Shown one piece after another: positions 21,015 through 52,233 of a stretch of 60,937 nt of DNA. Position 1 is the stretch's first letter, and each line of letters starts with the position of its first letter. Made by a program: the position numbers and the translations under genes. The stretch is from positions 1-60,937 of the forward strand of contig DATBYO010000124.1 in NCBI GenBank assembly GCA_036513655.1, read 5' to 3'. Under the pieces are notes generated by a model, which was not told the DNA's origin, made no database searches, and saw only the letters and a program-made list of their open reading frames with translations. Source of the stretch: Candidatus Dormiibacterota bacterium (GTDB lineage: Bacteria > Chloroflexota > Dormibacteria > CF-121).

Positions 21015-21135
21015 AGGTCAAGACTAGCCGTAACAGCTCAGTGACGAGGTGGGCTAGGGTGGCGCGCAAAGTTGATCTTGGCGAGCCGTTACTCGCGATG
21101 TGGGCGCGCCCTCAGCCGACGCCGGTCGGTCCTCG

Positions 21136-23811: not shown

Positions 23812-24200
23812 ATCAACTGATCCTCGTGGTCGAAGACGACGCGACAATGCAAAAGATGGCGCTCAAAATCCTGCGATCGCGCGGCTTCAGCTGCGAGCTC
23901 GCGCGCAACGGCCGGGAGGCGGTAACGATGGCCGCCACACTGAAGCCCGGCTTGATCCTGATGGATCTTTCGCTGCCGGAGATGAACGGCTGGGAGGCGA
24001 CCCGGGCGCTCAAGGCGGACCCAGCGCTCGCCCAGATTCCGGTGGTGGCCATCACGGCTCATGCCATGGTGGGCGACCGGGAGACCGCCATCGCGGCCGG
24101 CTGCACCGAATGCCTGACGAAGCCTTACGAGCTGGACGAATTGATCGCGCTGGTCGAGCGCTACATCGGTCCCGCCCAGGCGCAGGCCAAGATCGCCTGA
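23808..24200 (+). CDS. Single-domain CheY-like response regulator
   Basis: LILVVEDD, ILMDLSLPEMNG, TKP; ATGA overlap with the hybrid kinase. Confidence 0.85.
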   Translation: MNQLILVVEDDATMQKMALKILRSRGFSCELARNGREAVTMAATLKPGLILMDLSLPEMNGWEATRALKADPALAQIPVVAITAHAMVGDRETAIAAGCTECLTKPYELDELIALVERYIGPAQAQAKIA

Positions 24201-25572: not shown

Positions 25573-25641
25573 CCTCCCCCTCTGGGAGAGGGCAGGGTCC
25601 CAATGTCCCCCTCCCCCTGTGGGGGAGGGCAGGGTGGGGGC
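25573..25641 (+). repeat. Two tandem copies of the dispersed C-rich/G-rich hairpin repeat
   Basis: cctccccctctgggagagggcagggtccc (25573-25601) and ccccctccccctgtgggggagggcagggtgggggc (25607-25641). Confidence 0.85.
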
Positions 25642-28004: not shown

Positions 28005-28643
28005 TTACGGCGCCAGCCGCTCGAGGCGCCAGCCACCTTTGGCCAGCCGCTTGTAGCGGAGCCGGTCGTGCAACCGGTTCTCGCGATGCACCCAGAATTC
28101 GATCGTTTGCGGAACGACGCGATACCCGCCCCAGTTGTGCGGCAGCGGTACGGCCGCGCCCTCGTACTTCGCCGCCAGCGCGGCCACCGCGTCCTCGAGC
28201 ACGGCACGATTGCGAATCACGGCGCTCTGGGGCGACGCCCAGGCGCTCAGCTGGCTGGCGAGGGGGCGGCCGTGGAAGTAGGCGGCCGATTCCTCGGCGG
28301 ATTGCTTGACCACCGCGCCCGCGACCCGCACCTGCCGGCCGAGCTTCGGCCAGTAGATGACCAGCGCCGCCCGCGGATTCTCCGCCAGGTCGCGCCCTTT
28401 GTGGCTGTCGTAGTTGGTAAAGAAGCCGAAACCTCGCTCGTCGACGCCTCGCAGGAGCACCATCCGAGCCGAGGGCTCACCGGATCGGGTGCTGGTCGCG
28501 ACGGTCATCGCCTCCGGGAGGATCTCACCGGCGGCCACCGCCTCCTTGAACCAGGCAGCGAATTGTTTCAGCGGATCAGCGTCGGCGCTGCCTTCCGCGA
28601 GGATCGGCAGCGGCTGCGCTATGGAAGCAACCCGTGCGACCAG
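28005..28643 (-). CDS. pdxH: Pyridoxamine 5'-phosphate oxidase
   Basis: ADPLKQFAAWF, RMVLLRG, FFTNYDSHKG, WGGYRV, IEFWVHRENRLHDR, ERLAP. The 5' end is unresolved: I see no ATG/GTG/TTG in frame between the implausible ATG 28925 and the conserved core. CTG 28643 is given as a placeholder. Confidence 0.75.
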   Translation of the reverse strand: MVARVASIAQPLPILAEGSADADPLKQFAAWFKEAVAAGEILPEAMTVATSTRSGEPSARMVLLRGVDERGFGFFTNYDSHKGRDLAENPRAALVIYWPKLGRQVRVAGAVVKQSAEESAAYFHGRPLASQLSAWASPQSAVIRNRAVLEDAVAALAAKYEGAAVPLPHNWGGYRVVPQTIEFWVHRENRLHDRLRYKRLAKGGWRLERLAP

Positions 28644-29005
28644 CGGACGTTGCCCTCTTTGTCCACCGGCGCGTGCTGCCGCGCGATCACCCAGACGCCG
28701 GCCTTCTCCAGCTGCGTCTGGGCCTCGATCTCGTCGAGGTCCGTGCTGGCGACCAGGTCCCAGCGGCTGGGCTTGATCGACCAGCCCAGCGTTTCCATCT
28801 TCGAGAGGAGCACCGAGAGCTTGCGCAGGCGGTACCCGAGCGATTCCCCGAGCGCCAGCACGGACGCGCTGGCCGGCGCCGAGTCGGCGGTCGTTCCGTA
28901 GCTCTCGTAGAGCCGCTCGATCCATTCCGGGACCTCGCCGTCGACGGTCCCGGCCAGCTCCTCGCGAGGAGGGCCAAACAGGCAGAGCTTCAAGCGGGCC
29001 ACCAT
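28619..29005 (-). CDS. Hypothetical protein
   Basis: Balanced amino-acid composition (MVARLKLCLFGPPREEL..WIERLYESYG..) in contrast to the overlapping frame. Start ATG 29005 preferred over 29035. Confidence 0.5.
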   Translation of the reverse strand: MVARLKLCLFGPPREELAGTVDGEVPEWIERLYESYGTTADSAPASASVLALGESLGYRLRKLSVLLSKMETLGWSIKPSRWDLVASTDLDEIEAQTQLEKAGVWVIARQHAPVDKEGNVRWSHGLLP

Positions 29006-29016
29006 CCTATTATCCG

Positions 29017-29937
29017 GTGGCAGTGTCCCCCCCACCCTCCGGACGGCAGTATGTCCTGACCTCGGGCGACCAGGAAGCCGTCATCACCGAGGTTGGCGCT
29101 GGCCTTCGCACCTATGCGGTCGACGGGCGCGACGTCATCGATGGTTTTGGAGAGGACGAGATGTGCAGCATCGCCCGCGGCCAGTTGCTCTTGCCGTGGC
29201 CGAACCGGATCGAGGACGGCCGGTACGAATTTGCGGGCGCACTCCATCAGTTGCCGCTCAGCGAGCCGGCGCGGTACAACGCGCTGCACGGACTGACCCG
29301 CTGGGTGAACTGGACCGCCCTGGAGCAGGCACCCGACCGCGTGCTGCTGTCGCTGGTGCTGCATCCTCAGGACGGCTACCCGTTCACGCTCCGTTTTGAC
29401 GTCGAGTACCGGGTCGCGGCCGGCGGTCTCCGCATACAGACCACCGCAACGAACCTCGGGAGGCACGCCGCCCCCTTTGGCGCCGGCCACCATCCCTACC
29501 TGACGGTCGGCACGCTCATCGATCAGGCGCTCCTCAAGCTGCCCGCGTTGATGCGGCTCGAAGCCAACGACCGGCTGATCCCGACTGGGCGCTTGCTTCC
29601 GAATCGGGGAACGCGATACGACTTCCTCGAGTTGCGGCCTATCGGGCCGTTGACCATGGACACCGCCTTCGCGAATCTGATTCCGGACAGCGACGGGCTC
29701 ATCCGGGTTCATCTCCAGGCACCCGGGGGGGACCCCCGGGTGACGCTCTGGATGGATGGGGTCTACAAGTTCCTGATGGTGTTTACGGCGGACACGATCC
29801 CGCAGCCCGCCCGCCGGCGGCGCAGCATCGCGATCGAACCGATGACCTGTGCGCCGAACGCCTTCCGCACCGGCGACGGGCTGATGGTGCTCCAGCCCGG
29901 CCAATCCTGGAGCGGCAGTTGGGGGATTTTGCGGTAG
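29017..29937 (+). CDS. Aldose 1-epimerase (galactose mutarotase-like) family protein
   Basis: LLPWPNRI.DG.Y, NALHG, FGAGHHPYL and IEPMTCAPNAF, typical of the mutarotase fold. Confidence 0.75.
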   Translation: MAVSPPPSGRQYVLTSGDQEAVITEVGAGLRTYAVDGRDVIDGFGEDEMCSIARGQLLLPWPNRIEDGRYEFAGALHQLPLSEPARYNALHGLTRWVNWTALEQAPDRVLLSLVLHPQDGYPFTLRFDVEYRVAAGGLRIQTTATNLGRHAAPFGAGHHPYLTVGTLIDQALLKLPALMRLEANDRLIPTGRLLPNRGTRYDFLELRPIGPLTMDTAFANLIPDSDGLIRVHLQAPGGDPRVTLWMDGVYKFLMVFTADTIPQPARRRRSIAIEPMTCAPNAFRTGDGLMVLQPGQSWSGSWGILR

Positions 29938-30026
29938 CTTAGGCGGCTCGACGTAGCCGGTGTCGGTCTGCCAATATCAGGGTAAGGACATCACGCTTCG
30001 GCTGTAGCCGTATGGAGGGAAAGCTG

Positions 30027-32552
30027 ATGGTGTACGGGAAGATTTACGTCCCCCTCGATAACTCGGACCATTCCAATGCGGCTATCGAGGTCGCCATTCA
30101 GCTCGCAAAATCGACGCAGGCCAAGCTCGTTGGGACCCATGTGTACGCGGCGCGGATGCACGACGTGCGCTTCAAACAGATGGAGTACACGCTCCCGGAG
30201 GAATATCAGCACGAGCAGGAGCTCGAGCGTCAACGGAAGATCCACGACTCGCTGATCACCCGCGGGCTGCAGCTGATCTCGGATTCCTATCTCGACGTCA
30301 TGAAGGCGGCCTGCGATCGGGCGGGTCTTCCCTTCGAGTACAAGACATTCGACGGCAAGAATTGGGAATGCCTGGTCGACGACGTCGCCGAGTCGGACTA
30401 CGACCTGGTGATCATGGGCGCGCTCGGCATGGGCGCGGTCAAGGACAGCATGATCGGCAGCGTCGCCGATCGGGTGGTGCGTCGCATCCGCGTCGACTCG
30501 CTCGTCGTGCGCGATCCGCATCCGTTCCGAGATGACGCGTCAGATCGGATCGTGGTTGCCATCGATGGTAGCCCGCAGTCCTTCGCCGGCCTTCGGACGG
30601 CGATTGGGTTGGCGCGGGCCCTTGGCAAGCAGGTTGAGGCGGTCTCCGTCTACGACCCCTACCTCCACTACGCGATGTTCAACGGCATCGTCGACGTCCT
30701 CTCCGCGGAAGCCTCCAAGATCTTCCGCTTCAAGGAGCAGGAACAGCTCCACGAGGAGATCATCGACACCGGGCTGGCCAAGATCTATGAATCGCACCTG
30801 CGAGTCGCGCAGTCGGTGGCTCGCGATGAAGGCGTCGAGATCAAGACGACGCTCCTCGACGGCAAGGCCTTCAAGAAGGTCCTTCAATACGTTCGGCAGG
30901 ACCCGCCCTGGCTCCTGGTGATCGGCCGGATCGGGGTGCACTCCGCGGCACAGATGGACATCGGCAGCAACAGCGACAACTTGCTCCGCCTGGCACCGGT
31001 CAGCGTCCTGCTGTCGAGCCGCACCTACGTTCCCCCGGTTGATGTGCAGGCGGAGGCTAGCGTTGCCTGGACCGAGGAGGCGGAGGCACGCATGGAGAAA
31101 GTGCCGGCCGGGTTTCGCGCGATCACGCGCACCGCCATCTGCCGCTACGCGATGGAACGCGGGCACTCGATCATCAGCTCCTCGATCATCGACCTGGCGG
31201 TGTCGGAGGTGATGCCCGAGCATGCCGCTCGCGCCATGGGTGTCGAGCCGGCTGGCTCGATGGCCCGTATCACCAGCGAGGAAACCACCGCGACCTGGAT
31301 CTGCCGCCGTTGCGGCCGTCCGGCCCGGGCGGAGAAACCGCAGTCGTGCCCTGTCTGCGAGGGCACCAGCTTTCAGCCGATCGACAAAGCGGCGATCGCC
31401 GCCGCCGCGACCCGCGAGGGCGGCGTGGAGGAAGAGGAGGCCTTCGACGGCTTCAAGGTCAAGTGGACCGCTGACGCCAAGGAGATCCTCAACCGCGTGC
31501 CCAAGGGATACGAGCGACGCCGGGTCAAGGCGCGGATCGAAAAGATCGCCCGGGTCCAACGCCTGCCGAGCATCACGAGGGATTTCGCCGACACGAACCT
31601 GGACGAGGCGTACGCGCCGGTGGCCGAGGTGGTCAGCGACACGCTGCCGCCGGCGCCGAAGCCCGCCGCCGAGACGCCCCTCATCTGGACCGACGAGGCG
31701 GTGCAGCGGATGGAGCGGGTGCCGGGCGGCTTCATGCGGATGCTGGCTCGCACCAAGGTCGAGGAGTTTGCCCGCAAGATCCAGGCGAATACCATCACCC
31801 GCGACGTGGTCGAAGGCGGGCTGGTCGATGCCAGGCTGATGATGGATCAGGCGCTCAAGGCCCACTCGCCGGAGGTGGTGAAGGCCGCGATGCAGGTCCA
31901 CGGCCATAACGGCGATGGCAACGGCGCCGAACCCCGGGAACCTTCACCCGGGTGGACCGAGGATGGAGTCCGGCGGCTCAACGAGGTTGAGATCCGCGCC
32001 GAGGAAAAATTCGATCCCTCCCGAGCTCGTGAACTCGCGCAGCACGCCGCCGAATCCCGGGCGGCGCGAACCTCGGAGGCGATCAATGCGGCCTTCCTGG
32101 AGCGGCTGGGGATCAAGATCGGCTACGGTCATCCGCTCAGCCCAAAGACCTTCGAGCACCGCTTCACCTGGTCGCCGGAGGCGGAGGCACGCCTCGCCAA
32201 CCTCCCCTCGTACTGCCGCGAGCTGAGCCGCTGGCGCGTGGAGTGGACGGCGGCCAAGAAAGGCCTTGGCCCGGTGATCACGCCGGCAGTAATGGACGTG
32301 AAGTTCGACATGTGGGGCGAAGTCTCGGACGCCCTGCAGCAGAAGGGGCCGCAGATGGCCTGGGAGCCGGAGGCGGAGAAGCGGCTCGAGAACATGCCGC
32401 CCTTCGTGAAAGGCCAGGTGATGGCGGCGGTCGAGGGCAATGCCCAGGAGCTCGGCGAAGAGCGAGTCACGACAAAGGTGATGGACGCCGTCATCCAGAA
32501 GTGGATCGAGACGGGCGATTTCCATGAAGGTCGATACGGCTTCAGAGCCTAG
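30027..32552 (+). CDS. Two universal-stress-protein domains + Zn-ribbon + six PCP_red-like (protochlorophyllide reductase B C-terminal type) repeats
   Basis: ATG 30027 has a GGAGGG SD 7 nt upstream; the track start is 30012. USP motifs (IYVPLDNSDHS..GALGMG..GSVADRVV; IVVAIDGSP..GRIGVH..GSNSDNLL). CRRC..CPVC ribbon (about 31302-31358). Repeats of W(T/S/E)xEAxxR(M/L)xxVPxxxR...A...G...IT between about 31068 and 32507. Confidence 0.7.
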   Translation: MVYGKIYVPLDNSDHSNAAIEVAIQLAKSTQAKLVGTHVYAARMHDVRFKQMEYTLPEEYQHEQELERQRKIHDSLITRGLQLISDSYLDVMKAACDRAGLPFEYKTFDGKNWECLVDDVAESDYDLVIMGALGMGAVKDSMIGSVADRVVRRIRVDSLVVRDPHPFRDDASDRIVVAIDGSPQSFAGLRTAIGLARALGKQVEAVSVYDPYLHYAMFNGIVDVLSAEASKIFRFKEQEQLHEEIIDTGLAKIYESHLRVAQSVARDEGVEIKTTLLDGKAFKKVLQYVRQDPPWLLVIGRIGVHSAAQMDIGSNSDNLLRLAPVSVLLSSRTYVPPVDVQAEASVAWTEEAEARMEKVPAGFRAITRTAICRYAMERGHSIISSSIIDLAVSEVMPEHAARAMGVEPAGSMARITSEETTATWICRRCGRPARAEKPQSCPVCEGTSFQPIDKAAIAAAATREGGVEEEEAFDGFKVKWTADAKEILNRVPKGYERRRVKARIEKIARVQRLPSITRDFADTNLDEAYAPVAEVVSDTLPPAPKPAAETPLIWTDEAVQRMERVPGGFMRMLARTKVEEFARKIQANTITRDVVEGGLVDARLMMDQALKAHSPEVVKAAMQVHGHNGDGNGAEPREPSPGWTEDGVRRLNEVEIRAEEKFDPSRARELAQHAAESRAARTSEAINAAFLERLGIKIGYGHPLSPKTFEHRFTWSPEAEARLANLPSYCRELSRWRVEWTAAKKGLGPVITPAVMDVKFDMWGEVSDALQQKGPQMAWEPEAEKRLENMPPFVKGQVMAAVEGNAQELGEERVTTKVMDAVIQKWIETGDFHEGRYGFRA

Positions 32553-33480
32553 CCTGCTCAGCGCCGTTGCCCTGAGCCGCTCCTACCGCGGGGGGAAGGG
32601 CGTCTTCGACGTGACGCTCAAGCTGGCGCCCGGCGAGGTGCTGGGCTTGATGGGCCCGAACGGCTCCGGAAAGACCACGCTCCTTCGGGTACTCGCGACC
32701 GCCGCCGCACCGACCGCGGGGCGCGTTGCCTGGTTCGGCAATGCGAATCGACGCGATCCGTCGGTGCGCCGGCGGCTGGGCATCATGCTGGATCAGGCGG
32801 CCCATTTCGACCAGATGACGGGCTACCAGAACGCCTGGTTCTTTGCGCGCCAGTACGGCGTCCCGCGAATCCTGGCCGCTGAGCGGTTGGAGGAGCTGCT
32901 TCGCTGGTGCGGACTCTGGGACGCGCGCGACCAGCTGGTCCGAGAATACTCGCTCGGCATGAGGCGCAAGCTCAACCTGGTCGAGGCCCTCGTGCACCGT
33001 CCCGCGATCCTTCTGCTCGATGAGCCGACGCTGGCGCTGGACTATCGGGCCGAGCTCGATCTGATCGAACGTCTGCGGCTGCTCACGCTGACCGGCATCG
33101 GGGTGGTGCTCGCAACCAACGACGTGCACCTGGCGGAGCGCATCTGCGACTATGTCGTCTTCCTGCACCAGGGGCGCGCCATCCGGGAAGGGCGCCCTCC
33201 AGAACTCTTGACGGAACTTGCCGGCTCCAAAGAGGTGCAGCTGCAGGTCAACTCGCCGGTCGGTCTCGAGAACCTCCGTTCACTGCCTGAAGTCCAGGCC
33301 GCAACCGTCGAAGGCGACACCGTCCACATCATCCTGGCTCGCGGCGCGAACCCCGCCCAGGTGCTGGCCGTCCTCAACGGCACGGCCGACCTGGTGAGCA
33401 ACATGCGGGTGCGCCGGCCAAACCTCGGCGATCTCTTTTTGAAGCTGACCGGAGTCGCCTTACCCGCGGAGCCGAAGTAG
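32524..33480 (+). CDS. ABC transporter ATP-binding protein
   Basis: Walker A GPNGSGKTT, signature YSLGMRRKL, Walker B ILLLDEP; 29-nt overlap with the upstream gene. Confidence 0.85.
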   Translation: MKVDTASEPSLLSAVALSRSYRGGKGVFDVTLKLAPGEVLGLMGPNGSGKTTLLRVLATAAAPTAGRVAWFGNANRRDPSVRRRLGIMLDQAAHFDQMTGYQNAWFFARQYGVPRILAAERLEELLRWCGLWDARDQLVREYSLGMRRKLNLVEALVHRPAILLLDEPTLALDYRAELDLIERLRLLTLTGIGVVLATNDVHLAERICDYVVFLHQGRAIREGRPPELLTELAGSKEVQLQVNSPVGLENLRSLPEVQAATVEGDTVHIILARGANPAQVLAVLNGTADLVSNMRVRRPNLGDLFLKLTGVALPAEPK

Positions 33481-34187
33481 TGCTCGCCGGCACTGTCTGG
33501 CAGCGGGAGCTGGTCGAGTTCGCCCAGCGTCGCCGCGCCCTGGTCATCAAGCTGGTCTTTCCGCTGCTGGTTGCCGTGCCGCTGGTTCTCAGCAATGTCC
33601 CCGCGGTCTATGCCGCCACGACCCTGACGATGCTGGTCGCGATCATCGGCCCCCTTGGCGCGGGCGCCGTCCTCACCCGCGAGCGGCAGAACGGCCTGGT
33701 GCTGCGCTATCGAACGCTGCCGGTGACCCCCGGCCGTCTGCTCATCGAGCGTCTGGGCACCAACGCAGCCATCGATTTCCTCCAGGTGCTTCCCGTCCTG
33801 GCCTTGATCGCCCTCCGACATCCCGGCCAGTTCGCCTGGTGGCCGGCGCTCCTGCTGAGCGTGGCCGGCGTGCTGCTGATCGGCAATCTGATGGGCGCGG
33901 TCGCCAGCACCCTTTCCGATTCACCCGGCGAGGTGATGCTCTACGTCATCATCCCGCTGCTGCCGCTGCTCTACCTGGCCGGCGTCTTTACCCCGCTCAC
34001 GCAGCCGGCACTGCTCGTCGTTTCGCGCCTGCTTCCGTTCAGTTACCTGCACGAGTCACTGCTTGGGGCGCTCGGGGGTCAGCCCAACCTCCTGCCGTGG
34101 GAGACGTTGCTCGGCGGTTTCGGCTTCCTCGTCGGCGCCGCCGGTCTGACCGGCCGGCTGGGACGGCGCGTTCTCGAGTCGGACTGA
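33480..34187 (+). CDS. ABC-2 type transporter permease
   Basis: Six predicted helices, a TRERQNG motif (ABC-2 EREQGT-like), TAGTG junction. Confidence 0.7.
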   Translation: MLAGTVWQRELVEFAQRRRALVIKLVFPLLVAVPLVLSNVPAVYAATTLTMLVAIIGPLGAGAVLTRERQNGLVLRYRTLPVTPGRLLIERLGTNAAIDFLQVLPVLALIALRHPGQFAWWPALLLSVAGVLLIGNLMGAVASTLSDSPGEVMLYVIIPLLPLLYLAGVFTPLTQPALLVVSRLLPFSYLHESLLGALGGQPNLLPWETLLGGFGFLVGAAGLTGRLGRRVLESD

Positions 34188-34193
34188 CACTCC

Positions 34194-35441
34194 GTGACAA
34201 CCACGGTTATCGCCGCGTCGTTCTCTATCGACCAGCCTGGCATCCAACTGCCCTTCGTCACCAACCGCTGGGCGGTCGGATTTTTCTTCCTGGTCCACAT
34301 CATCTTTGGCTCGTTCACCATGGGTGCCCTGGTGCTCGGGCCCACGTTCGAGTGGATCGGCCTTCGACGCGAGGACCCCCGGTACGAGCGCTACGCGCGG
34401 GCGCTCGGCAACGTCAACCTGAAGATCTTCAGCCTTGGCGCGACCCTCGGCGGGTTCGCGGTCATCGTGGTCACCGCACTCTACCCGAGGTTCTTCGTGA
34501 CGCTGATCACGCTCTTCTTCTGGCCGGCGGTGGTCGCCTTCAGCATCTGGTTCCTGACACTGGGCGGCATCCTCCTCTACAACCTGCGCTGGGACCGCTT
34601 CCGGCTGCGTAAGGGGATCCACATCGCGATCGGTTATGCCACGGCCGCCACCGAGCACATCTTTCTCTTCATCATCGTGGCCCTCGACAGCTATCTGCTG
34701 ACACCCGGGTCCGGCCAGGGTACGAGTGCCTTCTTCAACCCGTCGTACTGGCCGGAGCTCGGCCATCGGTTCGTCGGGAATCTGTCCTGGGCATCGTTCT
34801 TCATCGCCGCGGTGGCCGCGGTCTATGCGGCCGCCAGCCGGCTCCCCGCCAACCGCCTCTATTTCCATTGGGCGGCGCGGACCAGCCTGGTGGTGGGGTT
34901 TGTCACGCTGGTGGTACAGATCGTGCTCGGGGCGGTCTTCGTGGAAAGCATCAAGCAGGGGTCGCCCGGTGCGTTCCACTATTCACTCCAGGGTCCCTTC
35001 GCCTGGCTCTGGCTGGTGCAGGCGACGTTTATCGCCATCCTGCTGGTGGGCAGCAACCTCTACTTCTGGCAGTCCCGCCCAACCCCGCCGGCGCCGATCC
35101 TGACGGCCATCGTGGTCGTGGGGTCGCTGATCACGATGGCGCCGGCCGCGCTGTTCCCCAAAGGCCTGTTCTGGCTGCGCTACGTAGCGCTCGGCGTCGC
35201 GGTGCTGCTCAGCCTGCTGCACTGGCTGATCTCGCGACCGCGAACGCGGGCCATGACCCAGGACCTCCGGCGGAGTAGCCAGGTGACGCTCGCGGTGACG
35301 GGGGCGAGCGCCCTCCTGCTTTTCTTGCTGATGGGTGTGATCCGGACGACGGCGCGTAGCGACTACACGATTTACGGCGTCATGAAAGAGTCCGACAGCT
35401 ACGGGATCTTTCAGGGCCCATCGAACGGCTACTACCCATGA
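34194..35441 (+). CDS. Cytochrome bd superfamily CydA-like protein 1, lacking a Q-loop
   Basis: NRWAVGFFFLVHIIFGSF aligns with E. coli CydA helix 1 (H19) and LGHRFVGNL with the H186 region. Only about 20 residues separate helices 6 and 7. Confidence 0.65.
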   Translation: MTTTVIAASFSIDQPGIQLPFVTNRWAVGFFFLVHIIFGSFTMGALVLGPTFEWIGLRREDPRYERYARALGNVNLKIFSLGATLGGFAVIVVTALYPRFFVTLITLFFWPAVVAFSIWFLTLGGILLYNLRWDRFRLRKGIHIAIGYATAATEHIFLFIIVALDSYLLTPGSGQGTSAFFNPSYWPELGHRFVGNLSWASFFIAAVAAVYAAASRLPANRLYFHWAARTSLVVGFVTLVVQIVLGAVFVESIKQGSPGAFHYSLQGPFAWLWLVQATFIAILLVGSNLYFWQSRPTPPAPILTAIVVVGSLITMAPAALFPKGLFWLRYVALGVAVLLSLLHWLISRPRTRAMTQDLRRSSQVTLAVTGASALLLFLLMGVIRTTARSDYTIYGVMKESDSYGIFQGPSNGYYP

Positions 35442-35450
35442 GCGAGCAAT

Positions 35451-35490
35451 CTCCCTCCCCCGCATGCGGGGGAGGGCCAGGGTGGGGGCG
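35451..35490 (+). repeat. Dispersed C-rich/G-rich hairpin repeat copy
   Basis: tccctcccccgcatgcgggggagggccagggtgggggcgc, with a perfect 24-nt palindrome followed by a G-tract tail. Confidence 0.85.
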
Positions 35491-35495
35491 CGCTG

Positions 35496-35732
35496 ATGGG
35501 TGATCTCCAGACCTTCTTCTATCTGGCGTTGATCAGCGCGATCATGGTGGGACTCACGCTCCTATTCGTGCTCATCGTGCTGCGGGGATTGCGCCGGTGG
35601 TACCGGCAGGCCCACGGCCAGACGCCGCTCACCTTCTGGCTGACCGGCGGCGCGGTTACGGTTGCCCTGCTCTTCATCCTTGTCGGCACCGCGGGCGTGC
35701 TCTACGGCTTTCTCCGCTATGGCACATCGTGA
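35496..35732 (+). CDS. 78-aa two-helix membrane protein
   Basis: Two clear hydrophobic helices. It overlaps the Rieske start by 14 nt and sits inside the respiratory cluster. Confidence 0.5.
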   Translation: MGDLQTFFYLALISAIMVGLTLLFVLIVLRGLRRWYRQAHGQTPLTFWLTGGAVTVALLFILVGTAGVLYGFLRYGTS

Positions 35733-36210
35733 CCCGCGGCGGCTGAGCCGCCGGCAGTTCGCCGTCCTCGGTACCCAGTTGGCCGGCGCCGTCGTGGCAG
35801 TGCTGCTGGGGATTCCGATCGTCGGCTTCTTGATCTCGCCGCTATTCCGGCGCGAGCAGGTGGTCTGGCGGGAAGTGGGCGACATCGCCCGCGTCCCCGA
35901 TGCGGAGCCGACCAAGTTCGACGTCTCCTTCCCGCAACAGGCCTGGACGCAGGTGGATATCAAGGCCGCCGTCTACGTGGTGAAACGTAACGGCAACACC
36001 AGGGTCTTCTCCAATGTCTGCAGCCACATGCAATGTCCGGTTCGGTGGGAAACCACCCTCGGCCAGTTTCTTTGTCCCTGCCACGGCGGCCTCTATGACA
36101 TGGACGGCACGAACGTCGGCGGGCCGCCGCCGAAGCCCCTGCCCCAGTTCGTGCACCGGATCGACGGTACAACCCTTTTCGTCCAGAACCGCTTCACCGA
36201 GGAGATCTAG
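35719..36210 (+). CDS. Rieske 2Fe-2S protein with Tat signal
   Basis: ORF 35662-36210 trimmed to ATG 35719; RRLSRRQF twin-arginine motif, TM helix, CSHMQC and CPCHGG boxes. Confidence 0.85.
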   Translation: MAHRDPRRLSRRQFAVLGTQLAGAVVAVLLGIPIVGFLISPLFRREQVVWREVGDIARVPDAEPTKFDVSFPQQAWTQVDIKAAVYVVKRNGNTRVFSNVCSHMQCPVRWETTLGQFLCPCHGGLYDMDGTNVGGPPPKPLPQFVHRIDGTTLFVQNRFTEEI

Positions 36211-37376
36211 TGGTCCGCCGGCTCGGAGCAGCCTACAACTGGTTCGACGAGCGAACGGCGATCCGCAGCTTGCTGCGGAAGGGCCTGTACGAAGCGGTGC
36301 CAGTTCGCGGGGCCTGGTTCTACACCCTGGGCAGCGCCACGCTCGTCTTGATCCTCCTCCAGCTGATCACCGGCATCTTCCTCACGCTGCTGTACGTCCC
36401 GTCGGTCACGGAGGCCTGGGCGAGCTTGAACTACCTGAAAGCGCACGATGCCTTCGGCTCGATCGTCCGCGGGATTCATCTGTGGTCCGCCTACATCCTG
36501 TTGTTCGTGATCGGCCTCCACATGGTGCGGACCTTCTTTTCCGGCTCCTATAAGCGCCCGCGGGAACTCAACTGGGTGACCGGCGTCGGGCTCTTTCTCC
36601 TCGTCCTGGTGATGGCGATCACCGGCGCCTTTCTTCCGTGGGACCAGGCGGCGTATTGGACTGCCGTGGTCGTCACGAATGTCCCCTCCTACACCCCCGT
36701 GATCGGACCATTCCTGCGGGCACTCTGGCGCGGTGGAGATTTCGTCGGTCCGATCACGCTCAGCCGCAGCTTCGGCATCCATGTCTGGCTGATCCCGGCC
36801 ATCCTCTTCCCGCTGATCGGCGCGCACCTCGCGCTGCTGCGTAAACATGGCGAATTCGGCTCGTACATCAATTACCGGGGGGCCTACCGAAGCCGCGAGG
36901 GGGTGGACGTGCCGCCGGCGCCGGTGCAGCGTCCGATCGAGCCGCCCTATCCGGCCGTGCCTACCGATGAGCTCTGGGCCGCTCCCCTCGAGACCGAGGA
37001 TTTCTACCCGCATCAGACGTTCAAGGACGGTGTCATTTCGGCGGCGCTGGTCGTTCTCGTCTTCATCCTGGCGGTCGCCATCGGCGCCCCCCTCGAGGCG
37101 ATCGCCGATCCGTCCACGACGAGCTACACGCCCGTGCCCGAATGGTTCTTCCTGCCGCTCGATGAACTGCTCGTGCTGGTCCCGCAACAACTGATCCCGC
37201 TGGTCCTCGTGCTCCCCGCGGGAGGGGTTCTCCTGCTGCTCGCGCTGCCCTTCATCGATCGCGGCCCGGAGCGCAACCCGTTCGAACGTCCGGCGGTGAT
37301 GGTGCCGGGAGCGTTCGCCGTGCTCTTCGTCGTCATCCTGACCTTGCTCGGCTCGGGGCGGCTCTTCAACCTATGA
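36210..37376 (+). CDS. Cytochrome b (fused b6 / subunit IV type)
   Basis: His pairs GIHLW..GLHMV and GIHVW..GAHLA, a PEWFFLP (PEWY-type) Qo motif; TAGTG junction with the Rieske gene. Confidence 0.85.
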   Translation: MVRRLGAAYNWFDERTAIRSLLRKGLYEAVPVRGAWFYTLGSATLVLILLQLITGIFLTLLYVPSVTEAWASLNYLKAHDAFGSIVRGIHLWSAYILLFVIGLHMVRTFFSGSYKRPRELNWVTGVGLFLLVLVMAITGAFLPWDQAAYWTAVVVTNVPSYTPVIGPFLRALWRGGDFVGPITLSRSFGIHVWLIPAILFPLIGAHLALLRKHGEFGSYINYRGAYRSREGVDVPPAPVQRPIEPPYPAVPTDELWAAPLETEDFYPHQTFKDGVISAALVVLVFILAVAIGAPLEAIADPSTTSYTPVPEWFFLPLDELLVLVPQQLIPLVLVLPAGGVLLLLALPFIDRGPERNPFERPAVMVPGAFAVLFVVILTLLGSGRLFNL

Positions 37377-38749
37377 GCGCGCTGCTCGCGATCATCGGGC
37401 CGGCGCTTCACGTGCTCGCCACCCAACTGCCCCCACAGGCCCCGCAAGGTCGCAATATCGTCGGCGCCCAGGTCGCGATCGGCAGTCTGTTCTCGCTCCA
37501 CATCCTGATCGCGGGACTGGTGAGCGGGGCCGGCGAGCTCGGGCCGGCGATCGAGTTCCTCGGCTACATGCGGCAGCGTCGCACCTACGATCGGCTGGCC
37601 CACGGGTTGGGTCGCTTCATCACGCTCTATTTCAGCGTCAGCTCGACGATCGCGATCCTGCTGATCACCGTGCTGCTCGTCGGTTTTTGGGGCCATTTCT
37701 GGACGACCATCGTGACGATCGGCTTCTGGCCACTCTTGATCGAGGCCTGGACCTTCGTTCTCCAGGTGTCGCTTGCCTATCTCTGGTACTACACCTGGGA
37801 GCCGCTTCGATCGTTCAAGGGGGTGCACATGGCGATCGGCGGCCTGCTGGCGATCGCCTCCTTCCTCCAGGTCTACATGATCGACGTGATCGCCAGCTAC
37901 ATGCTGACCCCGACCAACCCACAGAACCCGATTCGCCTGGCCCTCAATCCGACGTCGTACCCGTTGACGGTCCATCGAACGATCGGCAACCTCGCCTACA
38001 TCGGGTTTGCCTTCGGGGGGTTCTGCGCCATTCGGTATCTGCGGGCAAAGACCGCCGAGGACAAGCGCTTCTACGACTGGGCGGGCAGTTTCGGGTTGCT
38101 GTGGGGCGTCTCGATGACGCTGCTCCAGCCGGTGGTTGGCTACTCCTATGCCAAGGAGATCCAGCTCCATGCGTATGGCAGTTGGTACAAGATGATGTTC
38201 GGGACCCTGAGCCCGGTGTTCCTCTGGCAGATCACGCTGCTCGGCATCATGTTCCTCACCGCCACCATTTATTTCGCCCGTCGATTGCGGACCGACGGGG
38301 CACGCGGAGCGGGATTGCTCAGAGCCATGTCGGTCGGGATGGTGCTGACCACGCTGCTGGCCGCCCAGCCCTACCACCTCGGCCTCACCTACGACGCGGT
38401 GGCGGCTGCCGGACTCAACCGGCCGTTCTGGGAGGGTGGCCTGATCAACCCGCTGGGATCGATGATTCCGTGGAAAGTGCTGGCGCTGATGTTCTACACG
38501 CTGATCGCGATCGCGGCGGTCGTCTGGTACCTGCGCGGGTTGCCGGGCGTCGTCTGGGGCACCGCCCGCCGCGGCGAGCAGCGGATCCTGGTGCTGATGG
38601 CGGTCTTGACGATGGCGATGATCGTCACCATGGGATTCATCCGGGAGAACGGTCGAGGACCCTTCCTGATCTCCGGGGAGATGACCATCCAGGGCCAGCA
38701 AAATGTCCAGACGGCCCAGCCGACGCCGGCGCCGCAGTCCAGCCCTTAG
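37373..38749 (+). CDS. Cytochrome bd superfamily CydA-like protein 2, lacking a Q-loop
   Basis: SLHILIAG (H19-like), LIEAWTFVLQ (E99-like), TVHRTIGNL (H186-like), a short helix 6-7 connection; ATGA overlap with cytochrome b. Confidence 0.65.
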   Translation: MSALLAIIGPALHVLATQLPPQAPQGRNIVGAQVAIGSLFSLHILIAGLVSGAGELGPAIEFLGYMRQRRTYDRLAHGLGRFITLYFSVSSTIAILLITVLLVGFWGHFWTTIVTIGFWPLLIEAWTFVLQVSLAYLWYYTWEPLRSFKGVHMAIGGLLAIASFLQVYMIDVIASYMLTPTNPQNPIRLALNPTSYPLTVHRTIGNLAYIGFAFGGFCAIRYLRAKTAEDKRFYDWAGSFGLLWGVSMTLLQPVVGYSYAKEIQLHAYGSWYKMMFGTLSPVFLWQITLLGIMFLTATIYFARRLRTDGARGAGLLRAMSVGMVLTTLLAAQPYHLGLTYDAVAAAGLNRPFWEGGLINPLGSMIPWKVLALMFYTLIAIAAVVWYLRGLPGVVWGTARRGEQRILVLMAVLTMAMIVTMGFIRENGRGPFLISGEMTIQGQQNVQTAQPTPAPQSSP

Positions 38750-38759
38750 GGGCGCCGTT

Positions 38760-38794
38760 CCCTCCCCTTCTGGGGGAGGGCAGGGTGGAGGCCC
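38760..38794 (+). repeat. Dispersed C-rich/G-rich hairpin repeat copy between convergent genes
   Basis: ccctccccttctgggggagggcagggtggaggccc. Confidence 0.8.
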
Positions 38795-39970
38795 CTACAT
38801 GGCGCAGGGCCCGACGGGCACCGGCTGCGTGCGCCCCTCGGCCTGGTCGATGTCGGTTTGGACCTCGGCATCGGTCAGGGCATAGGCCTGGCCCGGCTGG
38901 CTGGTCGACGCGGCGAAGATGACGCCCACGACGTGGCCGTCCAGGTCGACCAGCGGTCCACCCGAGTTGCCGGGCTGGACCTTCGCTTGCAGGGTCCAAA
39001 TGCTTCGCACCACGAGCTTTTGTCCGTAGATGTCGCGACCCTCCGCCTGATACTCGCCATTGACGACCGCGGGCGCGACATCCTCACCACCACCACCCGG
39101 GTAGCCGATCGCCGCCCCCTGGGTCCCGGCATGCGCGATTGCCTGGGGGATCGGTGCCAGTTGCAGCGACTTTACGTAGAGGATGGCGACGTCGCGGTCC
39201 GGGTCGAAGAGAACAATTTGGGCACTCAAGGCGCGCCCGGCAGGAGTACGCACCAACGTCCCCTGGGTGCCCGCCACCACGTGCGCGTTCGTCAGCACCA
39301 GGCCCGGTCCCACAGGGAAACCGCTGCCGAAGACAATGCCGCCGCAGCCGTAACCCTGGATCTTCAGGGTCTCGTCGGCGGCGGCCCGAACGCCGGGCGT
39401 GTTGGCGTTGGACGGCAGCGGCAAGGCCGAAGGCGCCGGCTCTAGTCCCGAAAACGCGGCGGGGAAGTTGACCCCGGCGATGATGGTCTCCACCCTCGCC
39501 AGGAAGGCCGGCGGCCGCGGAGCGATGGCGTCCAACGTTCGCAGCACCGCAGACCGCTGGATCGCACTGGACAGCTGCGGACTCGGAACCCGATAGAGGC
39601 TCAGCCCCAGGAACCAGGACACCGAGAGCACCGCGAGAGCGGAGAAGATGGCGCCGGCAAAGCTGTCGACCCGGCCGCTCTCCGGCCGCGCCAGCAGTCG
39701 CAAACGGATCGGCTCGCCAACCCAGTAGCCGAGGCTGCTGCCGATCGCGCCAAGGACGATCAGGACCAGGACGGCCCCCAGGGAACGCACGGTCGAATCG
39801 ACGATCTTGAGCGCATCCATTAGGACCGGCGCCACGGCGGCGCCCACGATGACGCCAAGAACGAGGCCGGCATATTGCGCCAGGGAGAGCCAGAACCCGC
39901 GGCGATATCCGCTGCCGACCGCAAAGATGATCGCGACCAGGATGATGAGGTCGATGAAGGTGAAGCGCAT
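38795..39970 (-). CDS. CvpA-like membrane domain fused to a trypsin-like serine protease (MarP-like)
   Basis: ORF 38795-40099 trimmed to ATG 39970 (MRFTFIDLIILVAI). Four N-terminal helices, then the triad motifs TNAHVV, DRDVAIL and GNSGGPL. Confidence 0.75.
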   Translation of the reverse strand: MRFTFIDLIILVAIIFAVGSGYRRGFWLSLAQYAGLVLGVIVGAAVAPVLMDALKIVDSTVRSLGAVLVLIVLGAIGSSLGYWVGEPIRLRLLARPESGRVDSFAGAIFSALAVLSVSWFLGLSLYRVPSPQLSSAIQRSAVLRTLDAIAPRPPAFLARVETIIAGVNFPAAFSGLEPAPSALPLPSNANTPGVRAAADETLKIQGYGCGGIVFGSGFPVGPGLVLTNAHVVAGTQGTLVRTPAGRALSAQIVLFDPDRDVAILYVKSLQLAPIPQAIAHAGTQGAAIGYPGGGGEDVAPAVVNGEYQAEGRDIYGQKLVVRSIWTLQAKVQPGNSGGPLVDLDGHVVGVIFAASTSQPGQAYALTDAEVQTDIDQAEGRTQPVPVGPCAM

Positions 39971-40236
39971 CAGGCGTGGACTCGAAGGTCGCTGCGCGGC
40001 TTCCCGACACAAATCAGGGCGTAGCCTTCGGCCAGTTCCTCGTTGCTGATCAACCACGCCTCGGTTTGGTCGATGATGCCGTCGACCCTGACCATGCACG
40101 TTTTGCAGCGGCCTTTTCGGCAGTCGAAGGCGAGCGGCAGGCCGGCCCGCAGCCCGGCTCCGAGAATGCCTTCATCCTCGGCCACCTCGACTGTCGTTCC
40201 GCTTCTGACGAAGGTGACATGGAAGGACCGCGCCAT
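39970..40236 (-). CDS. Plant-type 2Fe-2S ferredoxin-like protein
   Basis: ATG 40236 (MARSFHVTFV), CRKGRCKTC plus ALICVG Cys pattern; ATGA overlaps on both sides. Confidence 0.7.
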   Translation of the reverse strand: MARSFHVTFVRSGTTVEVAEDEGILGAGLRAGLPLAFDCRKGRCKTCMVRVDGIIDQTEAWLISNEELAEGYALICVGKPRSDLRVHA

Positions 40237-51201: not shown

Positions 51202-52233
51202 TTAGCTGCGGGAGGCCCTGGAGGCGCTGGGAAGGTTCTGGGCGATGCTACCGAGCTCCCGGCGGCCGGCAGCCTTTACCCGGTGCGCCAGGACCATCTC
51301 CGCCACCTCATTGACCTCGGGGACGCCGACCTCGGGCACCCCTCGGTAGGCGGCCAGCGCCTGGGAGGCCTTCCGGCCGACCAAATCGGCGCGATGCCCG
51401 TCCACCTGGAGGCTGACATTGAGCTCGGCGAGCGCCCGGAGGATCCCGGGCGGCATCACCACATGCGGGAAGCGCACGATGGCCTCGGCGATCCGGGTAC
51501 CAATCTCGGCATCCTGCCCGGCGAACCGCTTGCTGAAGGCGGCCGGATTGGACTCCCACTCTTCGCGACGCTCCACGATCTGGACCCGCTGCCCGATGTC
51601 CTTGATGCCTTCGACATCGACCGTCAGACCGAATCGATCGAGCAGCTGGGGCCGCAGGTCCCCCTCTTCCGGGTTCATCGTCCCGACCAGGATGAAGCGC
51701 GCCGGATGCCAGATCGAAATGCCCTCGCGTTCCACCACGTTGACGCCCATCGCGGCGGCATCGAGCAGCACGTCGACCAGATGGTCGTCGAGCAGGTTCA
51801 CCTCGTCGACGTAGAGGATGTTTCGGTTCGCCTCGGCCAGGACGCCGGGCTCGAACCGGCGCTCACCGCTTTTGATCGCCGCCTCGATGTCGATCGCCCC
51901 GACCACCCTGTCCTCTGAGGCATTGATGGGCAGCTCGACGACGCGCATCCGGCGGCGAGCGCGCGGGAGCGTCTCGCCGCGGGCCAACCGGTCCTGGCAA
52001 TCCGAGCAGAGCGACTCGGTCGCGTCCGGGTCGCACCGGTAAGGACAGTCCGCGACGACGGTCAGCTCCGGAAGCAGGCGGGCCAGGGCCCGCACCGCCG
52101 TCGACTTGCCGGTACCCTTCTCGCCTCGAATCAGGACGCCCCCGATCGCCGGATGGATCGCGTTCAAGACCAGGGCAAGCTTCATCTTGTCCTGGCCGAC
52201 GATGGCGCTGAAGGGATAGACAAACCGTTCCAT
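51202..52233 (-). CDS. ChlI/BchI-family AAA+ chelatase ATPase subunit
   Basis: Walker [10 protein letters not shown], Walker [26 protein letters not shown], and a CPYRC-X8-CSDC insertion. Confidence 0.8.

Follow-up and report, generated by a model that had tools for sequence, protein, structure and literature searches.

Background

The cytochrome bd superfamily was divided by Murali, Gennis and Hemp (2021) into the groups qOR, OR-C and OR-N. One of their operon types, OR-N5a/b, combines an 'a' and a 'b' gene with petA, petB and petD. The family was scored as being without a quinol site, and the pet gene context led these authors to infer that quinol is the electron donor, by way of a bc-like module as in the bc1 and b6f complexes. 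The present study deals with a cluster of this apparent type in a member of Candidatus Dormibacterota. It lies in a window of 60,937 nucleotides (nt), i.e. the whole stretch of DNA that was analysed, with a GC content of about 66%. Five of its genes encode two CydA-like proteins (hereafter CydA-like 1 and CydA-like 2) and, between them, a small membrane peptide, a Rieske protein and a cytochrome b. We interpret them as an OR-N5a/b-type, bd-like O2 reductase coupled to its own Rieske/cytochrome b6-type module, the whole probably forming one membrane complex free of c-type heme (rough probability 0.55).

The reference pair for OR-N5a/b is WP_143528031.1/WP_143528035.1 from Rubrobacter xylanophilus. 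Table S6 of Murali et al. (2021) gives H24, E104, E111, H132, Q146, H183 and E406 as the signature of OR-N5a, and H34, A115, T122 and H202 as that of OR-N5b, which lacks the proton-channel Glu; both have ten transmembrane (TM) helices. A 'Chloroflexi bacterium' pair (TMC48000.1/TMC47996.1) is also included in their table. The nearest relatives of the window carry accessions of the same series (TMD86840.1, TME57054.1 and others beginning with TMD, TME, TMF or TMG), so that its lineage was almost certainly part of that survey. More recently, a 2025 study of Nitrospirales reported that OR-N5 genes directly follow those of Alternative Complex III (ACIII), and described the affinity of OR-N oxidases for O2 with the words 'still remains unknown'. 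As ACIII is quinol-oxidising, this arrangement fits OR-N5 as a terminal module fed by a complex-III-like partner. Literature searches on the respiration of Dormibacterota returned nothing specific to this cluster, and it is not described by Ward et al. (2018) in their work on Chloroflexi.

The operon type and the entry of electrons from quinol are already published, the latter as a biochemical hypothesis. New here are the assignment of a- and b-type genes, a candidate Met ligand, a possible docking loop and a Glu-to-Gln replacement in the proton channel, together with a fused petBD, an extra small subunit and accessory genes that travel with the cluster in two or three lineages.

Gene content and order of the cluster

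A preliminary description of this DNA, made from its letters alone, had placed five + strand genes at 34194-38749, and all five were confirmed:

34194..35441, + strand: CydA-like 1, OR-N5b-type ('b', CydA'), 415 amino acids (aa), ten TM helices; Pfam Cyt_bd_oxida_I, 2.3e-14
35496..35732, + strand: two-helix membrane peptide of 78 aa, putative small subunit; two hydrophobic segments, GC content at third codon positions (GC3) 0.84, ratio of nonsynonymous to synonymous substitution rates (dN/dS) 0.28
35719..36210, + strand: Rieske [2Fe-2S] protein with a twin-arginine translocation (Tat) signal and one TM anchor; Pfam Rieske 2e-11, UCR_Fe-S_N Tat signal 0.0025
36210..37376, + strand: fused cytochrome b of the cytochrome b6/subunit IV type, 388 aa, N- and C-terminal domains in one protein
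37373..38749, + strand: CydA-like 2, OR-N5a-type ('a', catalytic-like), 458 aa, ten TM helices; Pfam Cyt_bd_oxida_I, 1.1e-13

GC3 values between 0.84 and 0.88 were of coding type throughout. All five genes are under purifying selection, with dN/dS ratios of 0.08-0.31 relative to their orthologs in a locus about 80% identical (dS being near saturation), the lowest value being that of cytochrome b. Overlaps of 1-14 nt had been described for the whole cluster. They were recovered at three of the four junctions (14 nt if the Rieske gene starts at ATG 35719, 1 nt in TAGTG and 4 nt in ATGA); CydA-like 1 and the peptide gene are separated by a 54-nt gap (35442-35495) which contains a GC-rich repeat hairpin. 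This insert was missing in several relatives (e.g. loci L004, L005 and L007), where the same junction measures 2 nt.

CxxCH occurred in none of the five proteins and in no open reading frame (ORF) of at least 80 aa in any frame of the whole window. Likewise, CydB, cytochrome c and heme-copper oxidase were not found among the neighbouring genes scanned, in keeping with the first reading of the DNA. No alternative electron acceptor therefore lies nearby, which speaks for a self-contained system.

The CydA-like pair

Judged by sequence profiles and structural models, both CydA-like proteins belong to the cytochrome bd superfamily, with a CydA fold and an invariant helix-1 His. CydA-like 1 and CydA-like 2 scored 53.2 and 51.0 bits, respectively, against Pfam PF01654 (gathering score 26.2), the matches covering only profile positions ~3-237 of 418. 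The other profile checks proposed at the outset, for the Rieske domain and for the N- and C-terminal domains of cytochrome b, also gave matches; no NCBIfam model matched either CydA-like protein or the 78-aa peptide. In phmmer searches, CydA-like 1 matched Geobacillus CydA (5DOQ_A, 8.6e-6). CydA-like 2 alone found no match in the PDB and a family profile was required, which reached 5DOQ_A at 3.7e-14 and aligned E124 and position 131 with E101 and E108 of Geobacillus CydA. The two proteins are paralogs, sharing 25% identity over 406 residues (E 4e-32).

AlphaFold2 predicted ten TM helices in each protein. Mean predicted local distance difference test (pLDDT) and predicted TM-score (pTM) values were 78 and 0.80 for CydA-like 1, 80 and 0.80 for CydA-like 2. 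The alignment behind the former model was enlarged with the paralogous a-type family because the b-type search brought only close relatives. In Foldseek comparisons of each model with the PDB, the best ten matches were all CydA chains (E 1e-8 to 1e-5, TM-score 0.5-0.6), CydB chains coming next; the best match of CydA-like 2 was 7OY2_C (1.2e-8).

A search of 1.84 billion cluster representatives yielded only 264 relatives at E ≤0.001, from which 55 full-length family representatives were aligned. The b-type profile brought only close Dormibacterota relatives (at least 79% identity) and no extra diversity, and a distant protein, P0128, used as a query in genome contigs, retrieved no loci. Key residues of E. 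coli CydA corresponded as follows:

E. coli H19: H35 in CydA-like 1, H43 in CydA-like 2
E. coli E99: A115 in CydA-like 1, E124 in CydA-like 2
E. coli E107: T122 in CydA-like 1, Q131 in CydA-like 2
E. coli H126: H143 in CydA-like 1, H152 in CydA-like 2
E. coli H186: H191 in CydA-like 1, H201 in CydA-like 2

The equivalents of H19 and H186 are kept in both proteins, as had been noticed at first sight. CydA-like 1 retained three His (H35, H143 and H191) and had both proton-channel Glu replaced (A115 and T122); its H35/A115/T122/H191 series repeats the OR-N5b pattern almost number for number. In CydA-like 2 the residue set was H43, E124, Q131, H152, Q166, H201, M364 and E425. Apart from M364, it follows the OR-N5a pattern at a constant offset of +18 to +20, with Q131 as the one departure, and the E445 equivalent given for OR-N5a by Murali et al. 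(2021) stands at the position matching E425. Among 43 relatives of CydA-like 2 (36-91% identity), H43, E124, Q166, H201, Y259, K261, H266, E425 and R428 were invariant. Position 131 was Gln throughout the sublineage of the window (at least 61% identity) and Glu or Met in more distant a-type proteins, while the H126 equivalent was Arg in a lineage about 40% identical.

The preliminary description had Met393, the heme ligand of canonical CydA, lost from both proteins. This probably applies to CydA-like 1, in whose family no conserved Met was found at that place. It is doubtful for CydA-like 2 because M364, within the motif (L/I)G.M.PWK just ahead of helix 9, was present in 42 of the 43 relatives and in 12 of 12 diverse clade members. 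Ligands for three hemes are conserved as a full set in this protein, all of them invariant except for the single relative lacking M364.

The stretch after helix 6, which carries the quinol-binding Q-loop in canonical CydA, was short as first described (~13-14 residues in the AlphaFold2 models and ~20 by hydropathy, range 13-22). This short link and the CydB gene not found set the pair apart from canonical quinol-oxidising bd (qOR1-3). The picture of a CydA with a shortened loop did not hold, since the proteins have ten helices, two of them additional and located at the site expected for the Q-loop. The profile alignments, to Pfam as well as to the PDB, stop ahead of the post-helix-6 region. 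The loop following helix 6 in CydA-like 2, Y259-A-K-E-I-Q-L-H266, was strictly conserved, and the C-terminal I-R-E425-N-G-R-G-P-F resembles the canonical E445-x-G-R-Q-P-W. A weak hidden Markov model (HMM) alignment, not significant alone, set helices 9 and 10 of CydA-like 2 on canonical helices 7 and 8. Should this alignment be correct, the place of the Q-loop would be filled by two additional helices (~281-330) and an outer loop of 35 residues; M364 would then sit where Met393 sits in E. coli and could replace it as heme ligand.

Residue signatures, gene context and the link to Rubrobacter (see below) all point to the OR-N5a/b operon type.

The Rieske/cytochrome b module and the small peptide

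The Rieske ORF opens at 35662. Its likely start is ATG 35719, which gives the twin-arginine N-terminus MAHRDPRRLSRRQF. Both boxes (CSHMQC and CPCHGG) were present, with the two additional Cys expected for the disulfide, and the closest solved relatives were b6f- and Thermus-type Rieske proteins. The best PDB match of the cytochrome b was cytochrome b6 (1VF5_A, 1.2e-47, residues 8-217), and its C-terminus matched b6f subunit IV. Its heme ligands H90, H104, H191 and H206 aligned with H86, H100, H187 and H202 of cytochrome b6, and the PEWF motif was found. A Tat-exported Rieske protein and a fused cytochrome b with both His pairs, recognised early on, were thus both borne out, and the module holds the residues of a Rieske/cytochrome b complex: two Cys and two His for the cluster, a disulfide pair, a Tat signal, four heme His and PEWF. 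A c-type acceptor subunit (c1, f or di-heme c) was not found: the window has no CxxCH ORF, and cytochrome c families were also absent from the Pfam matches for called genes in loci L030 to L033. A heme ci as in b6f was considered and rejected, because the cytochrome b contains no Cys.

The 78-aa peptide occupied the same position in all Dormibacterota loci, and its counterparts in L030 and L032, of 90 and 77 aa, could still be recognised. It was not present in Rubrobacter clusters.

Conservation and distribution

The closest relatives of the window came from soil metagenome-assembled genomes (MAGs) labelled 'Chloroflexi bacterium CF_xx' or 'Candidatus Dormi(i)bacterota'. The five-gene order was kept in 25 of 25 Dormibacterota loci as far as their contigs extend, with CydA-like 1 identities ranging from 92% down to 51%. 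It was also found in L030 and L031, which represent the lineage about 40% identical; a third locus of this lineage, L033, lacks its 5' part, the Rieske gene being the first one present. The same order was displayed by L032 (4769-10739), a divergent second cluster of Dormibacterota that is about 36% identical to that of the window. In Rubrobacterales, at 26-35% identity, the order was b-type, Rieske, cytochrome b6, subunit IV and a-type. Representative P0149, 33% identical to CydA-like 2, retrieved 77 loci, nearly all labelled Rubrobacteraceae or Rubrobacter and the remainder only 'Actinomycetota/Actinobacteria bacterium'. The a-type proteins of Rubrobacter were 33-35% identical to CydA-like 2, with a His at position 24 (L046). 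Conservation of the neighbourhood, one of the checks proposed for the initial reading, extends across the Dormibacterota loci, the ~40%-identity lineage and Rubrobacter, and the arrangement lies well beyond what chance would give.

Some loci had particularities of their own. Rubrobacter taiwanensis carries a complete OR-N5 cluster (L043) and a solitary a-type copy without partners (L040, 7992-9323), and several Rubrobacteraceae MAGs carry two loci. A conserved gene of about 214 aa precedes the b-type gene in L043 and in L046 (R. marinus). The L032 cluster has neither Usp/PCP_red nor ABC genes (see below), and a cupredoxin gene lies on the opposite strand ~0.4 kb downstream of its last gene.

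Contigs L021, L023, P0328 and P0120 were 70-90% identical to the window across the cluster and labelled Eisenbacteria, Binatus, Acidoferrum or Actinomycetota. Wide transfer across phyla was rejected as an explanation, the labels probably reflecting mistakes in binning or labelling within MAG collections. The same doubt may apply to the name 'Candidatus Angelobacter' given to L030.

Proposed mechanism and alternatives

Under the interpretation favoured here, quinol, probably menaquinol, would be oxidised at the Qo site of the cytochrome b (PEWF) together with the Tat-exported Rieske cluster. One electron would return to the quinone pool via hemes bL and bH, in the manner of a Q-cycle. The other would pass from the Rieske head to the low-spin heme b of CydA-like 2, liganded by H201 and probably M364, which is the likely acceptor since cytochromes c1 and f are both missing. 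With the Q-loop gone, this heme would be exposed at the outer face, where the conserved Y259-H266 loop would adjoin it. Electrons would then move on to two active-site hemes at H43 and E425, where O2 would be reduced with protons arriving through the E124 channel. CydA-like 1, with its three conserved His, would stand in structurally for CydB, the part played by CydA' in archaeal CydAA', and may also bind heme; the 78-aa peptide would be a small subunit. A direct coupling of this kind, quinol being oxidised at the Rieske/b module and electrons passing to a CydA/CydA' pair, had been put forward in the preliminary description; gene anatomy and conserved order fit the proposal, which for OR-N5a/b operons had already been published.

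Several points weigh against it. To our knowledge, no case has been characterised in which a Rieske cluster hands electrons directly to a b heme of a separate membrane protein. A soluble carrier or a cytochrome c could lie elsewhere in the genome, of which the window covers 61 kb, and the divergent cluster L032 does have a cupredoxin gene nearby. The ligand role of M364 was deduced from topology and from the weak, non-significant C-terminal HMM alignment, and the table of Murali et al. (2021) gives '-' (zero Met) for OR-N5a. In the alignments, the E107 equivalent of the proton channel is changed from Glu to Gln in the sublineage of the window. Among PDB entries up to April 2026, no solved structure was closer than canonical CydA. 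For OR-N enzymes, neither biochemical nor structural studies were found in the literature; the initial remark that such proteins had not been characterised in this context was accurate as to biochemistry, the context itself having been noted by Murali et al. (2021). Finally, a sigma-70 promoter scan returned zero sites and terminator-like matches fell inside genes at near-background level, so that co-transcription is suggested by spacing, and the operon structure by spacing and conservation.

It is unlikely that the cluster encodes two separate, co-regulated enzymes, in which the Rieske/cytochrome b module would reduce a carrier encoded elsewhere (cupredoxin, high-potential iron-sulfur protein or cytochrome c) that feeds the CydA-like oxidase. 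The cupredoxin gene downstream of L032, the limited portion of the genome in view and the position of Nitrospirales OR-N5 behind ACIII, which passes electrons via c hemes, would agree with such a division. Yet, neither the window nor the 25 Dormibacterota loci showed a gene for such a carrier inside the cluster or close to it, and tblastn with the L032 cupredoxin found nothing in the window. Moreover, in every lineage the CydA-like genes bracket the Rieske and cytochrome b genes with overlapping codons, an arrangement more typical of one complex.

A CydA-like pair that does not reduce O2 is considered quite unlikely. It would be a multi-heme-b module leading to nitric oxide, peroxide or an extracellular or periplasmic acceptor, or serving reverse or cyclic flow. 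OR-N function is itself deduced rather than measured, the E107 equivalent is Gln and the H126 equivalent Arg in the ~40%-identity lineage, and CydA-like 1 keeps three His that a CydB-like partner would not need. Non-standard roles were also proposed, in one report (PMC12954380), for anammox Rieske/cytochrome b complexes with unusual partners. Nevertheless, the equivalents of H19, E99 and E445, which belong to the O2-reducing heme pair, are invariant in CydA-like 2. As far as is known, all characterised members of the superfamily reduce O2, including the heme-d-free CydAA'.

In E. coli bd-I, K252 and E257 at the start of the CydA Q-loop are quinol-site residues. That CydA-like 2 would itself oxidise quinol at its strictly conserved post-helix-6 loop (K261/E262, an adjacent Lys-Glu pair, and H266), next to an independent, parallel bc-type complex, is very improbable, since the loop is not linked to the Q-loop by any alignment (those of profiles with solved CydA end earlier), the family was scored as being without a quinol site by Murali et al. 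(2021), and a bc-type complex without acceptor subunit would have no outlet.

Accessory genes and other features of the window

The cluster had been presented as a unit of five genes. The packed same-strand array begins at 30012 rather than at 34194 and, judged by the co-occurrence of genes, the conserved unit is wider. Four further genes have to be considered:

28619..29035, - strand: soluble conserved accessory protein of 138 aa; GC3 0.90
30012..32552, + strand: cytoplasmic protein of 846 aa with tandem Usp domains, a CxxC...CxxC zinc-ribbon and five PCP_red (BchB C-terminal-like) repeats
32524..33480, + strand: ABC transporter ATPase, DrrA/NodI-like; Pfam ABC_tran 2.2e-29, NCBIfam drrA subfamily 1.2e-57 (below its cut-off)
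33480..34187, + strand: ABC-2 type permease, 235 aa; Pfam ABC2_membrane 5.3e-11

Junctions are a 29-nt overlap between the Usp/PCP_red and ATPase genes, a 1-nt overlap between ATPase and permease, and a 6-nt gap between permease and CydA-like 1. The 846-aa protein matched Pfam Usp (7.2e-40, two stretches) and PCP_red (2e-43, five stretches), with a dN/dS of 0.11; its tandem-Usp part resembles TB31.7/Rv2623 of M. tuberculosis (8.5e-5). It was encoded upstream of the cluster in 23 of 23 Dormibacterota loci whose flank reaches there, and directly upstream in L030 and L031. The ABC pair accompanied it in all those Dormibacterota loci except L024 and lay downstream of the cluster in the ~40%-identity lineage (L030 and L033). 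Neither the Usp/PCP_red gene nor the ABC genes were present at the Rubrobacter and L032 clusters.

The 138-aa protein had no match in Pfam or the PDB. It is homologous (24-30% identity, E ~1e-7) to the product of a 138-143-aa gene situated directly after the CydA-like 2 gene in L030, L031, L032 and L033. Its gene was found in 19 Dormibacterota loci, in each case upstream of the gene for the Usp/PCP_red protein and on the - strand; in L024 it is adjacent to that gene and divergent. This co-occurrence suggests that the protein is linked to the cluster.

PCP_red derives from the tetrapyrrole-contacting C-terminus of BchB, and a role in heme handling or its regulation may be speculated upon; the literature searched for PCP_red/PF08369 in proteins other than BchB provided no useful lead. 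A CcmAB-like heme exporter was considered for the ABC-2 pair and stays speculation, Pfam and NCBIfam giving only generic ABC-2/DrrA-type matches. It can tentatively be imagined, and we hold it to be rather unlikely, that nine genes act as one unit: the Rieske head would dock on the outer-face loop of OR-N5a and reduce the H201/M364 heme b, while the Usp/(PCP_red)x5 protein, the ABC-2 exporter and the 138-aa protein would form a module for heme delivery, assembly or dormancy-linked control, in a CydDC-like role. If true, this would be a wiring from complex III to an oxidase without known precedent.

Beyond the coding sequences, a GC-rich, repetitive extragenic palindrome (REP)-like hairpin repeat was found three times (the gene behind the second copy is listed as well):

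35451..35491 (core 35454-35475), no strand assigned: copy 1, in the sole real intergenic gap of the cluster
38758..38795 (core 38761-38779), no strand assigned: copy 2, directly past the stop codon of CydA-like 2, at the end of the same-strand array
25610-25628, no strand assigned: third copy, intergenic
38795-40099, - strand: CvpA-trypsin protease, the next gene after the array, on the opposite strand

CCTCCCC-N-GGGGAGG thus occurred in three copies, 0.02 being expected by chance in the window; the copies have ~35 nt in common and form CCCTCCCC-loop-GGGGGAGGGCAGGGTGGGGGC.

The window also encodes, at 51202-54323 on the - strand, adjacent ChlI-like AAA+ (343 aa) and ChlD-like AAA+/VWA (696 aa) proteins resembling a Mg- or Co-chelatase pair, whose presence beside the PCP_red protein is probably coincidental. 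Signalling genes were found 6-14 kb upstream of the cluster: a large HTH-HD-GAF-GGDEF protein (16033-18459, + strand) lies there, as does a hybrid Cache/HAMP histidine kinase followed by a response regulator (21100-24200, + strand).

Significance

In important uncultured or slow-growing groups such as Nitrospira, Dormibacterota and Rubrobacter, the role of terminal oxidase is attributed to bd-like proteins that have no quinol site. OR-N5 with its Rieske/cytochrome b module is the simplest of these systems, having five or six membrane proteins and lacking c-type heme, and for this reason the cleanest one for learning how a Rieske protein feeds a bd-type oxidase and with which energy yield. By what is established on the energetics of the Q-cycle and bd oxidases, about two charges would be translocated per electron if Q-cycle and bd-type charge separation both operate, as compared to one for bd alone. 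Such a chain would need neither copper nor cytochrome c maturation. It could be a main respiratory route of Dormibacterota, which are abundant in nutrient-poor soils. The link to a tandem-Usp protein, proteins of this kind being known from the dormancy regulon of mycobacteria, is a hint that the cluster may serve persistence. No new class is introduced here; the comparative detail (candidate Met ligand, conserved docking loop and accessory genes) should be useful for work on Rubrobacter, of which cultured strains make this enzyme class testable.

Comparison with known systems

Canonical bd (CydAB[X] of E. coli, Geobacillus and Mycobacterium) shares the CydA fold according to Foldseek, and the equivalents of H19, E99, H126, H186 and E445 are present in CydA-like 2. 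The pair of the window differs from it by lacking the Q-loop and CydB, by ten instead of nine helices and by a low identity (~13-19%); its quinol donor site would lie in a partner module.

The archaeal CydAA' (qOR4a/qOR4b) of Caldivirga maquilingensis is comparable in that it consists of two CydA paralogs, the second one replacing subunit II, without CydB. Its reduction of O2 has been demonstrated and involves b hemes alone. Unlike the proteins of the window, its subunit A keeps the quinol site and the Met ligand, it has eight helices and there is no Rieske/cytochrome b partner. Moreover, A' retains only the H19 equivalent, whereas CydA-like 1 retains three His.

On the quinol-oxidising side, the window has in common with b6f and with the b6c-type complexes of Firmicutes and Heliobacteria a cytochrome b that is b6-like and includes a subunit-IV part, a Rieske protein exported by the Tat pathway, and PEWF. 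The obligate bcc-aa3 supercomplexes of actinobacteria share with the proposed complex the idea of a hard-wired complex III and oxidase. In contrast to b6f, b6c and bcc, the window has no cytochrome f, c1, di-heme c or heme ci Cys, and the proposed partner is of bd type instead of heme-copper type.

The 'bd-like' OR-N1 and OR-N2 of Nitrospira also lie beside Rieske/cytochrome b genes; they cluster with complex III genes and a III-IV supercomplex was proposed (Lücker 2010; Mundinger 2019, PMC6606698). They belong to a different subfamily, with 14 helices, several c-type cytochromes and NXR-related subunits.

The closest system is OR-N5a/b of Rubrobacter, at only 26-35% protein identity. There, petB and petD are split instead of fused, the extra 78-aa two-TM peptide is missing, and the Usp/PCP_red, ABC-2 and 138-aa genes that travel with the cluster of the window are absent. 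At the residue level, the E107 equivalent is Gln in the window and Glu in the OR-N5a reference, the H126 equivalent of the b-type protein is His143 as opposed to Asn137 in the Rubrobacter reference, and the near-invariant M364 stands where the table of Murali et al. (2021) has '-'. What both systems have in common is their overall plan: paralogous 'a' and 'b' CydA-like genes, each encoding ten helices without a Q-loop, flank petA and petB(/D).

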